Assembly (NCBI GenBank): GCA_049290235.1 | Contig: JBATNG010000034.1 | Coordinates: forward strand, 3,686-67,685 | DNA from: Candidatus Moraniibacteriota bacterium | GTDB taxonomy: Bacteria > Patescibacteriota > Minisyncoccia > Moranbacterales > UBA1568 | Direction: 5' to 3' | DNA: 64,000 bases | Shown here: positions 2,317-45,781 of the stretch, piece by piece | How the letters are laid out: the number at the start of each line of letters is the position of its first letter | How positions within the stretch are numbered: the stretch's first letter is position 1 | Made by a program: the position numbers and the translations under genes | The notes under the pieces: generated by a model | What the model was told of the DNA's origin: nothing | Seen by the model: the letters and a program-made list of their open reading frames with translations, nothing else | Databases searched by the model: none

Positions 2317-3339
2317 ATGGCCAAGGAAAAAGCAGTCAGTAATGGGAGGAAGAGTGTCGACGCGGTTGTCGACGAGATCAAGGGGAAGTTTGGTGAGGGG
2401 ATGATCATGAAACTCGGCGATGTCCGGAAGGTGGATGTCGAGGCGATTCCGACGGGATCGCTGTCGCTCGACATCGCGCTCGGTATCGGCGGTGTCCCGC
2501 GCGGTCGGATCGTCGAAGTCTATGGTCCGGAGTCATCTGGCAAGACGACACTGACACTTCACACCATCGCCAATGCTCAGAAGGCCGGTGGGGTCGCCGC
2601 GTTCATCGATGCCGAACACGCCCTTGATCCTGAGTATGCCAAGCGTATCGGCGTGAATGTGAACGAACTCCTCATCTCGCAGCCGGACTCGGGTGAACAG
2701 GCGCTCGATATCGTCGAGACACTGGTCCGCTCAAACGCGGTGGATATCATCGTCATCGACTCGGTGGCGGCACTTGTGCCGCGGGCAGAGATCGAAGGTG
2801 AGATGGGCGATCAGCATGTCGGCCGGCAGGCGCGACTCATGAGTCAGGCCCTCCGGAAATTGACGGCGATCATCTCTCGGTCGAACGTCGTCGTGGTTTT
2901 CATCAATCAGCTGCGCATGAAGATCGGCGTCATGTTTGGTAATCCCGAGACGACGACGGGTGGCAATGCGTTGAAGTTCTACTCCTCGGTCCGGATTGAG
3001 GTGCGCAAAAGCGCTCAGGTGAAAAAGGGTGAAGAAGTCGTCGGCAACCAAGTCAATGTGAAGGTCGTGAAAAACAAGGTTGCCCCACCATTTCGAACGA
3101 CATCGTTCTTCATCATGTACAACGAAGGCATTTCCTGGAGCGACGATGTCCTCGATACCGGCGTGAAGTATGAAGTCATCAAGAAACAGGGGAACACCCA
3201 TTCGTTCGGCGAGGTGAAGCTCGGCGTCGGGCGCGAACAGACGCGGGCCTTCCTCAAGGAGAATCCAAAGGTGGGGAAAGAGATCGAGAAGGCCATCTGG
3301 AAGCGGGTGAAAGAGCTCGAACTGGAGGCATCGAAGTAG
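2317..3339 (+). CDS. recA: Recombinase RecA
   Basis: '[20 protein letters not shown]', '[12 protein letters not shown]' and 'IVIDSVAAL' are unmistakable RecA motifs. Start taken at the second ATG (MAKEK...). Confidence 0.95.
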
Positions 3340-3351
3340 GAAAATGACAAA

Positions 3352-3376
3352 AGAGGCTCTCCTGGGCCTCTTTTTG
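3352..3376 (+). terminator. Rho-independent terminator after recA
   Basis: Hairpin agaggc-tctcctgg-gcctct followed by TTTTT. Confidence 0.5.
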
Positions 3377-3391
3377 TATGCGGTATAATGA
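3377..3391 (+). promoter_or_regulatory. Extended -10-like element TGCGGTATAATGAG, copy 1; copy 2 at 20687-20703 upstream of ftsA
   Basis: The same 14-15-mer containing TATAAT occurs at 3377-3391 and 20687-20703, each just upstream of a gene start. Confidence 0.3.
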
Positions 3392-3395
3392 GAAT

Positions 3396-4676
3396 ATGCG
3401 TATCAAAACAAACAAGCATCGCTTGATTCCTTTTTTTGTCTCCCTGCTTTCGATCTGGGGGGTTGTCTGGAGCGTGCCGCTGGTTTCAGCTCAAGATGAT
3501 CCGGACGAGATCAAAGATGATATCTCGGATGTTGAAAAGAAACTCAAAGCGGCTGAAGCCAAGAAGAAGGCGTTGGAATCTGAGTTGGCAGGGATCAATG
3601 CCTCATTGTCTTCCACTCAGCGGGCTATCGCTGAGGCCCAGATCAAGATCCAGCAGGCAGCCAATACTATCGAGCGCAAGGAAGCGGAGGTTGCTCTACT
3701 GGAAAGGCAGATCGAAGGGAAAAAGGAAATCATCACCGGACTCATGCGGGAGTTGTACTATCAGGGGGAGTGGCCATTGCCGCGCGTTTTGGTCGCCGAG
3801 GAGCGGTTCACCGACGTGGTCAATGACCCGGACAAGCTTCTGACCGTCGGGGAGAAGATCTCGACGGCGCTCGATTCGCTCTCTTTGACCAAGGCAGATA
3901 CCGAGTCAGAGAAGCTCTCGCTCGAGGATGCGAAGAAGGACCATGAGACGCTGCTTCAACAGAAGGCTGTCGAAAAGATCGCCCTCGTCTCTGATCAGCA
4001 AGAGACGCTCGGAGATGTCGAAGATGTCGCCAAGACAGTGTCCCGATTGAGTAAAGAACTGAACGAATTGCAGAGCGACTTGAACGCGCTCACCGGTGGG
4101 TCGTATGATGCAGGGGACATCAAGGAAGCCGTCACGTACGCCAGCGGAAAGACGGGTGTGCCGAAGGGTTTCCTCATGGGTATGCTGAAGATGGAGACCA
4201 ACCTCGGCAAAAACGTCGGCGGTTGCACCTATGCCGAAGTAGAGAAGGGTGCAGAGTCACGCTACAAGTCGGGCAAACTTTCCAAGGCTTCCTGGGCGAC
4301 GTTTCAGCGTCGACGCGAAGTCTTCAAGTCGATCACGAAGGAACTCGGTTACGATTACAAAAAGAAAAAAGTTTCCTGTAATCCGAGTGGCTACACGGGG
4401 ACCGGCGGTGCGATGGGTGTGGCGCAGTTCATGCCGGACACCTGGATGGGGTACAAGTCGCAGGTCGCTTCAAAGACTGGCCACAATCCGCCGGATCCGT
4501 GGAACCTGACCGACGGTGTGATGGCGATGGCCACCAAACTGTCCAAGACACCGGGTGTCACGAGCGGGAGTCGGAGCGCCTGGAAGAAAGCGGCGGCCTC
4601 ATATCTCGGCACGAGCTATGCCCCCTATATCAACGGTGTCCTCTACTGGGCGGACAACTACAAGAAGCTTTTCTAA
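3396..4676 (+). CDS. Secreted coiled-coil protein with a C-terminal lytic-transglycosylase-like domain
   Basis: N-terminal signal/TM 'LIPFFVSLLSIWGVVWSVPLVSA', a long Lys/Glu coiled coil, and a C-terminal 'GAMGVAQFMPDTW' matching the G-x-MQFMP-TW motif of SLT/MltB-type murein transglycosylases. Confidence 0.5.
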   Translation: MRIKTNKHRLIPFFVSLLSIWGVVWSVPLVSAQDDPDEIKDDISDVEKKLKAAEAKKKALESELAGINASLSSTQRAIAEAQIKIQQAANTIERKEAEVALLERQIEGKKEIITGLMRELYYQGEWPLPRVLVAEERFTDVVNDPDKLLTVGEKISTALDSLSLTKADTESEKLSLEDAKKDHETLLQQKAVEKIALVSDQQETLGDVEDVAKTVSRLSKELNELQSDLNALTGGSYDAGDIKEAVTYASGKTGVPKGFLMGMLKMETNLGKNVGGCTYAEVEKGAESRYKSGKLSKASWATFQRRREVFKSITKELGYDYKKKKVSCNPSGYTGTGGAMGVAQFMPDTWMGYKSQVASKTGHNPPDPWNLTDGVMAMATKLSKTPGVTSGSRSAWKKAAASYLGTSYAPYINGVLYWADNYKKLF

Positions 4677-40733: not shown

Positions 40734-41015
40734 ATGGCTGCAAACTTGGTGACAAAAAAGAAGCGCGGGAGAGTAAAGCCATCATCCGATGCGATTCTCG
40801 CGCGCATCGCCCGGATTGAGGGACAGCTACGTGGTATCCGCCGCATGGTCGAAGAGAAGGATGAATGTCTCGATATCATCGCCCAGATTTCGGCGATCCG
40901 CGAAGCAGTCGCGATGCTCGGCGTCGAACTACTGAAGGATGATTTTGTTTGTAAGTGGGAGGGGAAGAAGAAAATTGACGAGGCTTACCTGAAGAGCCTG
41001 TTCAAGATGCAGTAG
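40734..41015 (+). CDS. CsoR/RcnR/FrmR-family metal-sensing repressor
   Basis: 'LRGIRRMVEEKDECLDIIAQISAIREAVAMLGVELL' (DUF156 family). Confidence 0.75.
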   Translation: MAANLVTKKKRGRVKPSSDAILARIARIEGQLRGIRRMVEEKDECLDIIAQISAIREAVAMLGVELLKDDFVCKWEGKKKIDEAYLKSLFKMQ

Positions 41016-41101: not shown

Positions 41102-42019
41102 ATGTACGACTGTATTATCGTGGGCGGAGGTCCAGGTGGCGTTGCGGCGGGGGTCTATGCAGCGCGGAAGCAGATGAAGACGCTTTTTATCACCGAAAAC
41201 TTTCTCAGTCAGTCCGTCGTGTCAGCGTCGATCGAAAATTGGATCGGGACGGTGACGATTCCGGGCTGGGAATTCGGTCAGGCGCTCGAGAAGCATTTGC
41301 GTGCCCAAGAAGGACTCGAGATAAAAATCGGCGAACGTGCCACGAGCTTGGCTGGGCTTCCAGCTGGCGGCTACCGGATCACAACCGATAAGGGTGACTA
41401 CGAGACCAAAACCCTCATCATTGCGACTGGTGGTCGGCACCGTCACTTGGATATTCCAGGCGAAGAAAAGTTCAATGGCAAGGGTGTCGTGTACTGTTCG
41501 ACCTGCGATGCGCCGTTCTTTCGCGCAAAGAAAGTCGCTGTCGTCGGGAGTGGCAATTCCGCCCTGGAAGCCGTCGAGGACCTCTTGCCCTATGCAAATG
41601 AGATCGTGCTGGTGGTCCGAGGGAGCGAGTTGAAGGGCGACAAGGTAACGCAAGAAAAAATCCTCGCTTCACCGAAAGTGAGTGTCATCTACAATGGCGT
41701 CACGCAAGCGATTCTCGGCGAGGAGAAAGTCACCGGCCTGCGCTATCAGGATAAGGACACAACCGAATCGAAAGACATCACCCTCGACGGTGTCTTCGTC
41801 GAAATCGGCATGGTGCCGAACACCGAATTTGCAAAGGGTGTACTCGAGCTCAATGAGCGCGGGGAGATCATCCTCGATACGCGCCGGGCGACGACTTCGA
41901 AGCCCGGCATCTTCGCGACCGGGGACGCGACCGATGCACCGTACAAGCAGAACAATATCTCGACTGGCCTCGGTGTCACCGCTGCGCTGGCCGCGTATGA
42001 CTTCGTGAGAAAGGGGTAG
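41102..42019 (+). CDS. trxB: Thioredoxin reductase
   Basis: 'YDCIIVGGGPGG', redox 'CSTCDAPFF', 'VAVVGSGNSALEAVEDL'. The last ~20 codons are duplicated at 42963-43060. Confidence 0.9.
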   Translation: MYDCIIVGGGPGGVAAGVYAARKQMKTLFITENFLSQSVVSASIENWIGTVTIPGWEFGQALEKHLRAQEGLEIKIGERATSLAGLPAGGYRITTDKGDYETKTLIIATGGRHRHLDIPGEEKFNGKGVVYCSTCDAPFFRAKKVAVVGSGNSALEAVEDLLPYANEIVLVVRGSELKGDKVTQEKILASPKVSVIYNGVTQAILGEEKVTGLRYQDKDTTESKDITLDGVFVEIGMVPNTEFAKGVLELNERGEIILDTRRATTSKPGIFATGDATDAPYKQNNISTGLGVTAALAAYDFVRKG

Positions 42020-42076
42020 TAAAGACTTTCAACCATTGAAAAATCACGGTTTTCTGCTAGAATAAGGGGAGAAACG

Positions 42077-42358
42077 ATGTACTCTATGAGTCAGAATGCT
42101 GCTTTGAATTCATTCGTCAAGTCTCGACCGTACCTTGTGTGGTATGTGAAAGACATCGAACAATTGTCCGAATCATCGATCGTCGAGCATACGTTGAACT
42201 ATGGAAATTGGAGGGACGTTCAGGAACTCGTAGCGCTTCTCGGTAGGGAGAAAACAGCCGAAATCTATTCTTCCCAGAGAAAAGGGAAGAGAAATAACTA
42301 CCGACCCACTATTTCTCACTATTTCGATTTGTATTTCTCCCGTCATGCTACATGCTGA
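42077..42358 (+). CDS. Small ORF upstream of and overlapping the AbiEii-like toxin; putative cognate antitoxin
   Basis: 93 aa, 14-nt overlap with the toxin start, low GC. No recognised domain. Confidence 0.35.
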   Translation: MYSMSQNAALNSFVKSRPYLVWYVKDIEQLSESSIVEHTLNYGNWRDVQELVALLGREKTAEIYSSQRKGKRNNYRPTISHYFDLYFSRHATC

Positions 42359-42962
42359 AATCCTTTCAGAAGGACAGAGAGCGCTGTTGCCGCTGTTGCG
42401 GAAGCTCCATGATAGTTTCGGTTTAGTCGGTGGTACGGCTATCGCGCTCCATATCGGCCATCGCGAATCCGTTGACTTCGACCTGTTCACCACTGAACCG
42501 CTTCGCACCGACATGCTCCGAAGTGCCATCGTGTCTTTCGGGAAAAATATCCGTACGCTCGTCGATGAATCAGACGAGTACACGACGCTTGTCGATGGGG
42601 TGAAACTCACATTCTTGCGGTATCCTTTCCCGCTCGACTACCCCGTCGAATGGGACGGTATCGCAAGGCTTCCGGATCTTCTCACGCTTTCGGCGATGAA
42701 GGCCTACGCGCTTGGACGGCGAGCCAAGTGGAAGGACTATGTCGATCTCTGTTTTGTTATGGAAACAGGGCATTCATTACGCGATATCGCGCAGAGAGCC
42801 GAGAGTATCTTCGGCGACGAGTTCAATGAGAAGAATTTCCGTTCGCAACTTTCGTACTTCGACGATGTCGATTATTCTGAGGCGGTCATCTACCGTCCCG
42901 GCTTCGAGCGAAGCGATGAGGATATGCGGACGAAACTGACCGAGTTCAGTCTGGGTGAATAG
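42345..42962 (+). CDS. AbiEii/AbiGii-family (DUF1814) nucleotidyltransferase toxin
   Basis: N-terminal 'FGLVGGTAIALHIGHRESVDFDLF' is the DUF1814 NTase signature (GG[ST]AL...R.S.D[IL]D). Confidence 0.65.
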   Translation: MLHAEILSEGQRALLPLLRKLHDSFGLVGGTAIALHIGHRESVDFDLFTTEPLRTDMLRSAIVSFGKNIRTLVDESDEYTTLVDGVKLTFLRYPFPLDYPVEWDGIARLPDLLTLSAMKAYALGRRAKWKDYVDLCFVMETGHSLRDIAQRAESIFGDEFNEKNFRSQLSYFDDVDYSEAVIYRPGFERSDEDMRTKLTEFSLGE

Positions 42963-43060
42963 CGACCCGCGCCGTACAAGCAGAACAATATCTCGGCTGG
43001 CCTCGGCGTCACCGCTGCGCTGGCGGCGTATGACTTCATCCGCAAAGGCGGCACACACTA
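42963..43060 (+). pseudogene. Displaced trxB 3'-terminal fragment (native-codon-usage copy)
   Basis: Translates to RPAPYKQNNISAGLGVTAALAAYDFIRKGGTH*. Followed by a strong terminator. Confidence 0.7.
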
Positions 43061-43093
43061 GCTGGATAGCGAGTAGATGTGTAGCTCGTAGTA

Positions 43094-43117
43094 AGAGGCT
43101 CTAGATAGCCTCTTTTT
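43094..43117 (+). terminator. Rho-independent terminator (original trxB terminator)
   Basis: agaggct-ctagat-agcctct followed by TTTT. Confidence 0.5.
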
Positions 43118-43323
43118 CGCGCTCGAATACATTACCCTAGACAGAAACAGGAAAAAGGTGTATAATGGATTGTTCGTTAAAAATCCTGATTTTTGCCAGA
43201 GCAGCCAGCGCTTCTTCGTCCTTCGATACCAACATAGGACAGAAAAGAAGACTTTGCTGCTCTGGCAAACTCACGTTGTGAGAGCCTTGAGCACGGTGAA
43301 AACCTATCATAGGAGAAAGCACC

Positions 43324-43893
43324 ATGTCTCAAATCGCAGAATTCCACGCCGCCATCCTGCAAAACCTCCCGGATCTCACTTCGCAAGAAATGCAGGAATG
43401 GATTGGACCGCGCCGTGCGACCTTACAGGCGGCGTTGGCACGGGTGTTGGCTGGGTACCGCCAAATTGCCCTTGATTACCGCCTCACACTCGAGCAGATG
43501 ATCGCCCTCGGTTGCTACGACAGGAAGAACAGCGACATTACGGCCGAACGCTTCCCTTTGGTGGGCAGCGGCGTGGCTGAGCTCGAGACGAAGCCATTTC
43601 ACTTCAACAAGCGTGTCTCGTCGGAGTCAGCAATCCAGCTGATCGCGGCCGCCGACCCGGTACGTCCTTGGCAAGTAGCCAAGATCGAGCACGGGCTCCG
43701 CTATGGGGCCGCCTATCCAGAGGAACAGCGCCAGTTCCCGATCGTGATGCTCGGTTCTTCCTGCCAGGTGTACGGCAGTCGCTGCGTGTCAGTTCTCTGC
43801 ACGGATGTCTCCGAGCGGGACCTGGACCTCGACTTCTGGGACGGTGAGTGGTTTGCCCGCTGCCGTTTCCTGGCCGTTCGCCCGGTGCTCTGA
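43324..43893 (+). CDS. DGR target (variable) protein, 189 aa; the VR encodes the C-terminal ~40 residues
   Basis: Good RBS (aggaga). The C-terminus '...GSRCVSVLCTDVSERDLDLDFWDGEWFARCRFLAVR' is encoded by the VR. Confidence 0.8.
   Translation: MSQIAEFHAAILQNLPDLTSQEMQEWIGPRRATLQAALARVLAGYRQIALDYRLTLEQMIALGCYDRKNSDITAERFPLVGSGVAELETKPFHFNKRVSSESAIQLIAAADPVRPWQVAKIEHGLRYGAAYPEEQRQFPIVMLGSSCQVYGSRCVSVLCTDVSERDLDLDFWDGEWFARCRFLAVRPVL
43755..43881 (+). repeat. DGR variable repeat (VR)
   Basis: 127-bp ungapped alignment to TR 44231-44357 with 18 mismatches, all where TR has A (VR has G or T). The last 22 nt, ctgccgtttcctggccgttcgc, are identical (IMH-like). Confidence 0.85.
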
Positions 43894-43935
43894 ACCTGGA
43901 GCCTTTGGGACAGCACTCTGTTCCTTTGGCCCTTC

Positions 43936-43972
43936 CCGCCGTATGCATGCATACGGCGGTCTTCTTTTTTCT
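43936..43972 (+). terminator. Perfect 24-nt palindromic hairpin plus T-run downstream of the VR
   Basis: ccgccgtatgca|tgcatacggcgg followed by tcttcttttttctg. Confidence 0.5.
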
Positions 43973-44230
43973 GATACAGTAGAGATGACAAATGAAAAAT
44001 CCATGGTTACGGCTGTGGGTAATTTGTCCGCATGCTGCAGAGTGAGAGTCGGGACGGCTACGGCTTTCTCGAGTGCGCTCGGCGGAATGTTCTCAAAAAC
44101 AGAGACAAGTTGGTGTGAGGTGCTCGGTAACAGATAAGGTTACGAATACGATACAGCCCTGAGAATTTTCCTCTGCTTTTCGGTGGGTGTATGGATCAAG
44201 GGGCGGTGGTACGGATGGTACCCTACACAT

Positions 44231-44357
44231 TTCTTCCTGCCAGATGAACGGCAATCGCTACGTGTCAGTTCTCAACACGAATGACTCCAAGCGGAACCTG
44301 AACCTCAACAACTGGGACGATGAGTGGAATGCCCACTGCCGTTTCCTGGCCGTTCGC
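44231..44357 (+). repeat. DGR template repeat (TR)
   Basis: The counterpart of the VR. The ORF predicted over it (44187-44387), Asn-rich with AAY codons, is not a gene. Confidence 0.85.
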
Positions 44358-44776
44358 TACTCTTCCTGTTTCTCCTGGTATGTGTGACCAGGAGTTTTGT
44401 TTATGAGTTGGCGCCTCCATCCGCCGAGCATCCGACCAATCTCCCCAAGTTGTTCGGCGAGGTAAGCGTACTTGCCATTATCGAGCGCTCGGGTATCCCA
44501 AGCGAGCTGTAATAGGAGTTTCAAAAGGTCAACCCGCGAGATGGCCCTGTTGATGAGGAGTTGCTTTTCGGTTGTTTGTGAGTAGCTCGCCAGGAAACAA
44601 TACTCGATAGTGAGGAGAAATATATCATCAATCTTCGATCCTATGGTGAAGCGCCGGGCTTTCGGAAAGTGGACGAGATATTCCTGCCAAATACCGTACG
44701 CGTCTTTGAGCTTGAGTACTACGGGGATGAGCTTTGGTTGCAGAAGGTTCGGGGGGGGGGTATTCTGTGAGGGCAT
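44357..44776 (-). CDS. avd: Avd-like accessory variability determinant (four-helix-bundle)
   Basis: C-terminal ~120 aa 'LKDAYGIWQEYLVHFPKARRFTIGSKIDDIFL...AISRVDLLKLLLQLAWD...EIGRMLGGW' match the Avd/PF05635 pattern. Start uncertain (M111 or M117 of the long ORF). Contains a C10/G10 tract encoding PPP. Confidence 0.65.
   Translation of the reverse strand: MPSQNTPPPNLLQPKLIPVVLKLKDAYGIWQEYLVHFPKARRFTIGSKIDDIFLLTIEYCFLASYSQTTEKQLLINRAISRVDLLKLLLQLAWDTRALDNGKYAYLAEQLGEIGRMLGGWRRQLINKTPGHTYQEKQEE
44751..44760 (+). repeat. G10 homopolymer at the avd 5' end, 20 nt upstream of the RT start codon
   Basis: Ten G at 44751-44760. Confidence 0.9.
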
Positions 44777-44779
44777 ACA

Positions 44780-45781
44780 ATGAAAAAACTCCATAACGCT
44801 TATCAGAATATCATCTCTGTCGAAAATTTGCTCGATGCGTGGCGAGAATTTGTGAGGGGGAAGAAAAAGAAGTGCGATGTGCAGGCGTTTCAGTATGCGC
44901 TCACTGATAATATTCTTGCACTTCATGCTGATTTGAAAAGCAAGGCCTATGTCCATGGTGGTTACGAGGCCTTTAAGGTCTCTGATCCGAAACCCCGCCA
45001 TATTCACAAAGCCTCCGTCCGCGACCGGATCCTCCATCACGCCTTGTATCGTGTCCTCTATCCGTACTTCGACCGGGCCTTCATCGCTGACTCGTACTCT
45101 TGTCGGATTGGGAAGGGAGTACACCGATCCCTCAATCGTTTTCGATCATTTGGCCGGAAAGTATCGAACAATCACACTCGAACGGTCTGGATACTCAAGT
45201 GTGATGTCAGAAAGTGCTTTGCTTCGGTCGATCAGGACGTTCTCATGAACATCCTCAAAAAACACATTGCTGATCCGGATACACTCTGGCTGCTGGAAAG
45301 AGTCATTACTAGCTTTGATTCAGGAACACCTGGCCGAGGGCTTCCTCTTGGCAATTTGACTTCGCAACTCCTCATCAATATCTATCTGAATGAGCTCGAC
45401 CAGTTTGTGAAACAGCAACTGAAAGCGAAGTACTATATCCGGTATGCAGATGATTTCGTCGTTTTTTCCAAAAATAAAGACGAGTTGAAAAATATACTCA
45501 TTCTGATGGATGTGTTTCTCAGACTCAATCTCTGCTTCGAACTTCATCCGGACAAAGTGTTCATCAAAACCATCGCAAGCGGTGTGGACTTCCTCGGCTG
45601 GGTGCATTTCCCTGATCACCGTGTCTTGCGGACGACGACCAAGCGAAGGATGTTTCGGAGATTGAGTGAGAAGAATATCGAGTCGTATCTCGGATTGCTT
45701 TCGCATGGGAATGGGTTGAGGTACGAGATAGAGAGAATAGCTTTGACAGAGGGGGTAAAACCTGCTATACTGGGAGAGTAA
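44780..45781 (+). CDS. DGR reverse transcriptase
   Basis: RT domains with 'LPLGNLTSQLLINIYLNELD' (the DGR-type [ILV]GxxxSQ motif) and the catalytic 'YIRYADDFVVF'. 333 aa, typical DGR RT size. Confidence 0.9.
   Translation: MKKLHNAYQNIISVENLLDAWREFVRGKKKKCDVQAFQYALTDNILALHADLKSKAYVHGGYEAFKVSDPKPRHIHKASVRDRILHHALYRVLYPYFDRAFIADSYSCRIGKGVHRSLNRFRSFGRKVSNNHTRTVWILKCDVRKCFASVDQDVLMNILKKHIADPDTLWLLERVITSFDSGTPGRGLPLGNLTSQLLINIYLNELDQFVKQQLKAKYYIRYADDFVVFSKNKDELKNILILMDVFLRLNLCFELHPDKVFIKTIASGVDFLGWVHFPDHRVLRTTTKRRMFRRLSEKNIESYLGLLSHGNGLRYEIERIALTEGVKPAILGE

Follow-up and report, generated by a model that had tools for sequence, protein, structure and literature searches.

A toxin-antitoxin cassette between two copies of a reductase gene end in a Moraniibacteriota bacterium, and recurrent repeat-flanked insertion of its family in the Candidate Phyla Radiation

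The window, a stretch of 64,000 nucleotides of contig JBATNG010000034.1 from Candidatus Moraniibacteriota bacterium (assembly GCA_049290235.1), harbours a self-contained toxin-antitoxin (TA) cassette at positions 42020-42968. The cassette is composed of a promoter, a gene for a DUF6922-like antitoxin and a gene for a toxin with the nucleotidyltransferase fold of MenT and AbiEii. It lies directly behind a gene for a thioredoxin reductase (TrxR)-like protein, the 3' end of which is present on both sides of the cassette. Direct repeats of this kind were also found around other cassettes of the same toxin family, most of them from the Candidate Phyla Radiation (CPR). This repeat-flanked insertion, recurring across a CPR TA family, is what is new here; the single locus is a tidy, explained insertion, and the family-wide pattern is the main interest. 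The reading that we favour, at a probability of roughly 60%, is an import of the cassette together with the neighbouring gene end, anchored by homology and without a dedicated recombinase.

Of the 8,000 candidates scored for the toxin family, 7,747 protein clusters reached E≤1e-5, and at least 576 of its loci, almost all from CPR, were present in GTDB species representatives. Eighty genome and eighty metagenome loci were fetched and dereplicated to 114 cassette loci. In these, 300 nt on each side of the cassette were searched for direct repeats at E<1e-5, with shifted positions in the same loci as controls. Flanking direct repeats were present in 18 of the 114 cassettes, about one in six, and in three of the 365 shifted controls (odds ratio 22.6, Fisher's p = 1.4e-9). 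Flanking inverted repeats were not enriched (1/114 against 0/365). The enrichment of direct repeats holds separately in the genome and in the metagenome collection. The latter served only as a replication set, since the metagenome toxin scan gave a best identity of 59% and no close relatives. Among the matches in control windows, that of L046 is a tandem paralogue duplication and that of L081 is in DNA free of open reading frames (ORFs); neither is a cassette.

The flanking repeats have lengths of 18-106 nt and identities of 84-100%, and those of one locus bear no relation to those of another. The sequences copied are the 3' ends of upstream genes (L019, L027, L074, L089, L175), the 5' ends of downstream genes (an rpiB-like gene in L013 and L058, a further gene in L073, pilD in L178), terminators (L136, L169, L175) and promoters (L111, L115). 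Outside the reductase locus, the toxins nearest to that of the window are encoded in other Moranbacteria loci, two of which carry such duplications.

Related cassettes were also found in a type IV pilus cluster, between pilin genes and the prepilin peptidase gene (L178-L181). The duplication in L178-L180 covers the first ~46 nt of the peptidase gene, and the antitoxin ORF of these loci is apparently truncated to 31 aa; in L181 the cassette occupies the same site and no remnant is present. In L086 (3530-3718 and 4684-4856), direct-repeat blocks of 61 nt and 106 nt are placed around the cassette in swapped order, and the 106-nt block has inverted termini, TATAGACTTT…AAAGTCTATA.

In the window, the reductase ORF ends …ISTGLGVTAALAAYDFVRKG* (an asterisk marks a stop codon) with its TAG at 42017-42019, and the toxin stop codon, also TAG, is at 42960-42962. 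The repeat search recovered a single direct repeat of 80 nt at 89% identity, 41936-42015 against 42969-43048, with a core identical at 63 of 66 positions (95.5%) and a longest exact run of 24 nt. The likeness between the upstream (U) and the downstream (D) copy ends exactly where the cassette-specific sequence begins. Behind its repeat part, the D copy continues to 43060 with the native final codons, GGTH*. The stretch 42963-43060 reads RPAPYKQNNISAGLGVTAALAAYDFIRKGGTH*, and the D copy translates in a hand-checked frame as APYKQNNISAGLGVTAALAAYDFIRKGGTH*. When the 64 kb were compared with themselves, only this pair and the variable repeat (VR) and template repeat (TR) of a neighbouring diversity-generating retroelement (DGR) reached E<1e-6; the tail repeat is therefore no chance match. 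An earlier reading of this DNA from its letters, called here the sequence-only reading, had described a tail duplicated around the cassette, with stops at 42019 and 42962, about 95% identity over roughly 66 nt and a strong terminator behind the second copy. All of these points hold. The terminator, an 8-bp hairpin with a U run, was missed by a simple scan, yet it is kept behind the single tail of the empty-site relatives L004 and L005 and behind the D copy of L009. The coordinates of the features are given in Table 1.

Table 1. Features of the reductase gene end and the inserted cassette, with positions in the window.
Feature	Position	Strand	Evidence
TrxR-like (AhpF C-terminal-type) FAD-dependent disulfide reductase, 305 aa	41102..42019	+	Pfam Pyr_redox_2, 1e-37
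Upstream (U) tail copy, functional 3' end; mosaic, left part native, right part cassette-borne	41936..42015	+	Direct repeat, five-genome tail alignment, AGA codon
Left arm of the cassette with its own promoter, 57 nt, AT-rich	42020..42076	+	Promoter scan, 36.8% GC
Putative antitoxin, 93 aa, DUF6922-like, all-alpha	42077..42358	+	Gene order, sub-threshold DUF6922 match, AlphaFold2 (AF2) model
Toxin, 205 aa, MenT/AbiEii (DUF1814) nucleotidyltransferase, full length for the family	42345..42962	+	Pfam, PADLOC, Foldseek
Right junction cgaccc, from the toxin stop to the D copy; identical in L090	42963..42968	+	Sequence, tail alignment
Downstream (D) tail copy, native remnant	42969..43060	+	Repeat, match to empty-site tails
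Native intrinsic terminator of the reductase gene, now behind the toxin gene	43093..43118	+	8-bp hairpin and U run

The reductase gene stays whole because the second tail copy precedes the cassette. The D copy is probably untranslated, since it lacks a start codon and follows the toxin stop in the same frame. Transcription of the cassette by read-through from the reductase gene is probable, because the native terminator now sits 3' of the toxin gene. A tail remnant in frame with the toxin, with no stop between them, was observed in the window (42960-43060), in L009 (6869-6990), in L074 and in L175; in L019, L027 and L089 the remnant is not in the toxin frame, and the in-frame layout is probably due to chance. 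Read-through of the toxin stop into an in-frame remnant was considered and rejected, as no more than 3-4 of 6-7 loci have the in-frame layout, a share without statistical significance.

Relatives were found by a homologue search with the reductase, and the surrounding DNA was then read. The product of 41102-42019 is 100% identical to P0001, annotated as Candidatus Moraniibacteriota. Empty sites were present in L004 (from ERR8482633, reductase protein 93% identical) and in L005-L008 (from the Joint Genome Institute, JGI; 89%). Their single tail ends RKGSTH* or RKGGAH* and continues directly with ctggatagcgagtagatgtgtagctcgtagtaagaggctctaga.agcctcttttt, which is the DNA behind the D copy in the window. 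A filled site was found in CP064975.1 (L009), a 1.2-Mb single-contig assembly with a reductase 88% identical, a cassette for proteins of 90 aa and 206 aa, and a 50-nt repeat at 96% identity. The JGI contigs L090-L092 carry a filled site of like architecture. Empty and filled states in related genomes thus bear out the earlier proposal that the 3' end of the gene was rebuilt by an insertion. A duplicated tail without the cassette, the arrangement named beforehand as contrary to an insertion, was not seen among these relatives, and those with empty sites have a single tail.

The tails of the orthologues indicate which of the two copies is native. Among the closest orthologues listed, 29 of 29 read ISAG and not ISTG, and 28 of 29 run past RKG, the exception being P0027, which ends RKQR. 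The ancestral tail, still in its native context, is therefore the D copy. D copies bear lineage-specific signatures, and that of L090 resembles the empty allele of L004, GSTH* included. U copies are mosaics, and in their right part (GTCACC…GTGAGAAAGGGGTAG and the promoter arm) the window and L090 do not differ. The U copy of L009 ends RKGKKK*, from which the RKG* of the window is one AAG→TAG change away, and RKGK-type tails are natural in more distant orthologues. The Arg codon in the U tail of the window is AGA, a codon used for two of 116 Arg residues in five flanking core genes and for four of 23 in the cassette. Mosaic U copies, RKGK-type tails and the AGA codon lead to the conclusion that the end of the functional gene copy was imported, in agreement with the sequence-only reading, which had the downstream copy as native and the upstream copy as imported.

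The cassette moves horizontally, since it is far more alike between genomes than its flanks. Between the window and L090 it is 95-100% identical, against ~64-85% for the 5' two-thirds of the reductase gene and the upstream genes. By its flanks, L090 has L004 as its nearest relative (88%), yet the site of L004 is empty. The reductase gene is a recombination mosaic among these lineages, and the filled allele spreads among Moranbacteria lineages via ordinary homologous recombination in the flanks. A comparable case is the cassette of L177 that is missing in L175: identity is only 82% in the adjacent gene upstream and 98% in the DNA downstream, and the cassette arrived along with the allele of the neighbouring gene.

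Three further observations concern these loci. L177 possesses two cassettes of the family (1508-2355 and 3242-4115) around one 210-aa gene, and the near-identical L175 lacks the first of them. In L092 (1-750), the 3' part of the reductase gene and the cassette are 99.95% identical to L090 (3080-3830) and are joined to a different 5' part in a 490-aa ORF, which may be a full-length AhpF-like gene, a rearrangement or a chimeric contig. L093 was considered as a circular form of the cassette and rejected, as its 30-nt end overlap is what a break of k=31 unitigs yields at the 44-nt exact repeat of that strain.

The cassette and its duplication could also be ancestral to the Moranbacteria clade and deleted in the lineages with empty sites. 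The site is filled in both the window and L009 despite flanks ~78% and cassettes ~70% identical, and a deletion between the two copies would be clean. Such an old vertical feature is very improbable, however, given cassettes 95-100% identical between the window and L090 in flanks of ~80% identity. The remnants, moreover, are intact frames with almost only synonymous differences and the signature of their own lineage; being intact and lineage-signed, they must be young in each lineage.

An assembly artefact, in which a chimeric join of two strains created a false duplication, is hardly credible. Short-read contigs from two other assemblies, SRR28060537 and GCA_049663145.1, do break at the end of the U copy: L001 and L002 (equal to 42014-43710 of the window) and L003 start exactly at 42014 and end inside the VR gene of the DGR. 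Nevertheless, the same architecture is present in independent assemblies, namely the 74.9-kb NCBI contig of the window, two JGI samples and the 1.2-Mb CP064975.1, and the right junction is covered by three more contigs at 100% identity. The break on the left suggests strain heterogeneity at this junction, because the tail copies in this strain share no exact 31-mer.

The primary insertion event was most likely a homology-anchored import. DNA would have been taken up from a relative whose orthologous gene was already followed immediately by the cassette. Homologous recombination in the orthologous gene would have anchored the incoming DNA, and its other end would have been joined a few dozen bases upstream in the recipient, through one-ended homologous and illegitimate recombination or through Campbell-type integration of a circle. 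The end of the U copy (…VRKG*, with its AGA codon) would have come with the cassette, and the original tail (…IRKGGTH*) with its terminator would have been left downstream, as a remnant that ends the toxin transcript. Loss may be clean, by recombination between the two tail copies, as the empty sites suggest. The antitoxin presumably restrains the toxin, and because of this the cassette would be hard to lose; to judge from its family, it may also act in abortive-infection defence.

The differences between U and D copies are in agreement with an imported orthologous gene end. In 11 coding cases with hand-checked frames, 30 synonymous and 18 non-synonymous codon changes were counted, and 36 of 58 differences fall at third codon positions (p = 7e-6), a bias which indicates that both copies evolved as coding sequence. 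The repeat boundaries lie within stop or start codons, and the two copies have different codons there (TAA/TAG in L019, TGA/TAG in L027, GTG/ATG in L058). In L175, the coding remnant, which is non-functional, is conserved, as is the stem of the terminator, while the spacer between them has diverged.

These observations bear on a different explanation, a true long target-site duplication, in which a double-strand break with nicks 18-106 nt apart is staggered, the overhangs are filled, and both copies are at first native and identical. The repeats are locus-specific and of varying length, several pairs are 100% identical, among them duplicated terminators and promoters (L136, L120, L115, L140), and in the window the similarity of U and D stops exactly at the cassette-specific sequence, all of which it would account for; it also has a precedent in the unexplained mechanism proposed for restriction-modification (RM) systems (PMC2853133). 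Such a duplication is nonetheless doubtful. A decaying remnant is expected to show ~28-38% synonymous changes, whereas the differences found are mostly synonymous or at third positions (p = 5e-4 against 38%). The foreign AGA codon and the different C-terminus of the U tail also speak against copies that were once identical, as do the differing stop and start codons at the boundaries and the spacer of L175, diverged though the non-functional coding remnant is conserved.

Several points weigh against the homology-anchored import. The rampant homologous recombination seen in the mosaic reductase gene could alone yield synonymous-type differences between U and D after an insertion of another kind, and the short, 100% identical duplications of terminators and promoters in L136, L120, L115 and L140 fit a staggered break equally well. 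A donor-like configuration, with the cassette directly behind the reductase gene and no remnant, was not found. Natural competence of these organisms is assumed, and the activities of toxin and antitoxin are read from fold and gene order only.

The sequence-only reading had compared the insertion with islands that target tRNA genes or gene ends. The gene end is indeed rebuilt as in an integrase-mediated insertion, at least three diverged lineages have the cassette at one and the same site, and the copies share an exact core of 24 nt. A remnant of an integrase-bearing island, or an element mobilised in trans like the integrase-less cis-mobilisable elements (CIMEs), with a gene 3' end in its attP, could be imagined on these grounds. 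Like such islands and CIMEs, the cassette has the 3' end of its target duplicated, with a functional copy that is partly element-borne and a native end displaced downstream. However, among the called genes within ~5 kb of the cassette in the window, L009 and L090, no recombinase was detected, nor was one found in or near the element in any filled genome. The unit has the same minimal two genes everywhere. Across the loci, the cassette ends show no conserved terminal motif and no terminal inverted repeats, and no attachment (att) core is common to the family, whose repeats, of 18 to 106 nt, show no relation from one locus to the next. The targets are many and unrelated, and they include 5' ends, promoters and terminators in addition to gene 3' ends. 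The right junction also differs between the window and L009 in the tail alignment. Site-specific integration is thus improbable, although a small chance is left for a recombinase acting in trans, and the many targets and variable repeat lengths led us to replace the comparison with islands by recombination with long target duplication.

The cassette is ~0.95 kb long and only two genes are found between the repeat copies, so the earlier description of a TA module without a recombinase stands. Among its neighbours are genes for an amidohydrolase, MurD, a CsoR-like protein, DGR components, MurA and MreB, and no mobility gene. A sigma-70-like promoter is present in the left arm, with hexamers at 42036-42063 (TTGAAA-16-TAGAAT with TG, 10/12 matches) and the extended -10 element TGCTAGAAT. 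The extended -10 motif TTTTnTGCTAgAATAAGGG recurs before the cassettes of L074 and L181, and the left arm contains little else. The antitoxin gene precedes the toxin gene in a bicistronic arrangement, and the two overlap by 14 nt. Both had been regarded as low in GC; this applies to the antitoxin gene (43.6%), and the toxin gene, at 52.9%, is close to the window (54.7%). A search of 41900-44500 against Rfam gave no match.

The upstream gene had been called trxB and considered essential. The name is an approximation, since its NCBIfam scores (AhpF 307 bits, TRX_reduct 262 bits) are both under the equivalog cut-offs; TrxR-like or AhpF-C-terminal-like describes the product.

The assignment of the 42345-42962 product to DUF1814/AbiEii was confirmed by a Pfam match to AbiEii (PF08843) of 41.2 bits, above the cut-off of 22.5, in which only residues 20-68 are aligned, and by a PADLOC AbiEii match (2e-6). 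NCBIfam contained no match to the toxin, and searches of PDB sequences with the toxin and with its profile were empty. The AF2 model (pLDDT 94.4) has as its best Foldseek matches JHP933, MenT1, MenT4 and MenT3/TglT, with E from 1e-6 to 4e-4. The nucleotidyltransferase motifs (GG[T/S]…DxD and K…R…KDxxD) are present in the family, and G30, T31, D44, K119, R126, K128, K130, D131 and D134 are invariant across 37 members, with D46 present in at least 90%. MenT toxins attach nucleotides to the 3' ends of tRNAs, and aminoacylation is blocked (PMC7450476, PMC10435456). By analogy, the cassette toxin should do the same and thereby block translation.

The 93-aa protein, proposed before as AbiEi/COG5340, has no thresholded match in Pfam, NCBIfam or PADLOC, AbiEi included. 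Instead it is DUF6922-like, with a sub-threshold match (E 8.5e-4) that was also seen in 37 of 46 homologues. A homologue of this antitoxin is located immediately upstream of the toxin gene in 164 of 165 loci, and some homologues are fused to a ribbon-helix-helix DNA-binding domain, like in classical antitoxins. The AF2 model (pLDDT 90.4) consists of five helices. No fold match to this model and no sequence match to the antitoxin profile were obtained in the PDB. A literature search gave no paper mentioning DUF6922; the cassette thus defines an unstudied DUF6922-like antitoxin for toxins of the MenT/AbiEii type.

Similar to the AbiE and MenAT systems (PMC7450476, PMC10435456, PMC11375011), the cassette encodes a DUF1814 nucleotidyltransferase with the catalytic motifs and the fold, and its toxin gene is preceded and overlapped by the antitoxin gene. 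In contrast to them, the toxin is short (~204 aa) and only its N-terminal motif aligns to the AbiEii model of Pfam. The antitoxin is neither AbiEi (COG5340, with a winged helix-turn-helix) nor a recognisable MenA, being a helical protein of ~90 aa for which no related structure has been solved. The first toxin motif has an invariant G-G-T, which corresponds to the core motif that holds the phospho-acceptor T39 of MenT1, the equivalence of the residues being putative. MenA1 induces auto-phosphorylation of MenT1 at T39 (PMC11375011). One may speculate that the 93-aa protein might likewise induce auto-phosphorylation of the toxin at the invariant Thr31.

The DGR next to the cassette, noticed in the sequence-only reading, is real and complete (43324-45781), with the VR at 43755-43881, the TR at 44231-44357 and a reverse transcriptase (RT) gene at 44780-45781. 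The VR is the 3' end of a 189-aa ORF, and 18 of 18 mismatches between TR and VR are at adenines of the TR (A→G 11, A→T 7). L009 possesses genes for bAvd and RT at the equivalent place, and L005 has a target-like gene and no RT. The leader of the DGR target gene (43138-43269) contains a strong promoter (TAGACA-17-TATAAT, 11/12) and, behind it, a 25-nt inverted repeat (43192-43216 and 43245-43269, 84% complementary) with no Rfam match; the arms tttgccagagcag…ctgctctggcaaa are conserved in L004, L005 and L009. An involvement of the RT in the insertion was rejected, as the cassette brings a promoter of its own and no RT is encoded near other loci with flanking repeats. On the other side, directly upstream of the reductase gene, a metal-sensing repressor of the CsoR/RcnR family (40734-41015) is encoded, which is present in all related loci.

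CPR bacteria, or Patescibacteria, have tiny genomes in which mobile elements are seldom recognised, and little is understood of the routes by which accessory genes reach them. The TA family studied here is abundant and is found repeatedly at gene termini, with duplications that spare the neighbouring genes and without a mobility enzyme. With two tail copies the insertion can be reversed cleanly, and a core gene would thereby become polymorphic for presence or absence of the cassette. We propose tentatively, with less confidence than the homology-anchored import itself, that the TA family is a recombinase-free selfish cassette which uses a captured gene end, terminator or promoter as a homing arm and integrates by host recombination, reversibly and with the target gene undamaged. 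If this is true, it would indicate, together with the RM precedent, a general and cargo-independent spread of addiction modules in naturally transformable bacteria with compact genomes.

Naturally transformable bacteria reportedly perform homology-facilitated illegitimate recombination and insertion-duplication of the Campbell type, processes associated with the names of de Vries and Wackernagel (2002) and Prudhomme et al. (2002). The homology-anchored import resembles these processes in that foreign DNA is integrated via one-sided homology and the outcome is set by the join of the non-homologous end. The classical cases, however, mostly delete DNA of the recipient, whereas the surviving products found here carry short duplications. 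Duplications plausibly survive because deletions would be lethal in compact CPR genomes.

The insertion of the cassette matches what has been termed "insertion with long target duplication", so far for RM systems, mostly in naturally competent species and with an unexplained mechanism (PMC2853133; Gene 259:99, 2000; summarised in PMC3874152). With regard to the criteria used by the Kobayashi laboratory, the insert is absent from relatives that align on both sides (L004, L005-L008), its flanking direct repeats exceed 30 bp (80 nt, 89%) and have one copy where the site is empty, and no mobility gene is present in it or next to it; the cargo, for which an RM system is specified, is here a TA pair. 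The resemblance to the cases of Furuta, Abe and Kobayashi (2010; PMC2853133) lies in a small addiction-type module without a mobility gene, present or absent between relatives. In both, the direct repeats are locus-specific, tens to hundreds of bp long, single-copy when the site is empty and often placed over a gene 3' end, and flanking repeats are statistically enriched in comparison with other genes. The differences are the TA pair with its nucleotidyltransferase toxin, the CPR/Patescibacteria hosts and the imprint of an imported orthologous gene end in the repeats. Furuta et al. invoked DNA breakage by the cargo (PMC2853133). The toxin of the cassette is no DNA-cutting RM cargo, therefore breakage made by the cargo cannot be the cause here, and a non-cutting cargo points instead to host recombination of DNA that was taken up. 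Our literature search gave no paper describing insertion with long target duplication for TA systems, and the cassettes described here extend this mode of insertion from RM systems to a toxin that does not cut DNA.

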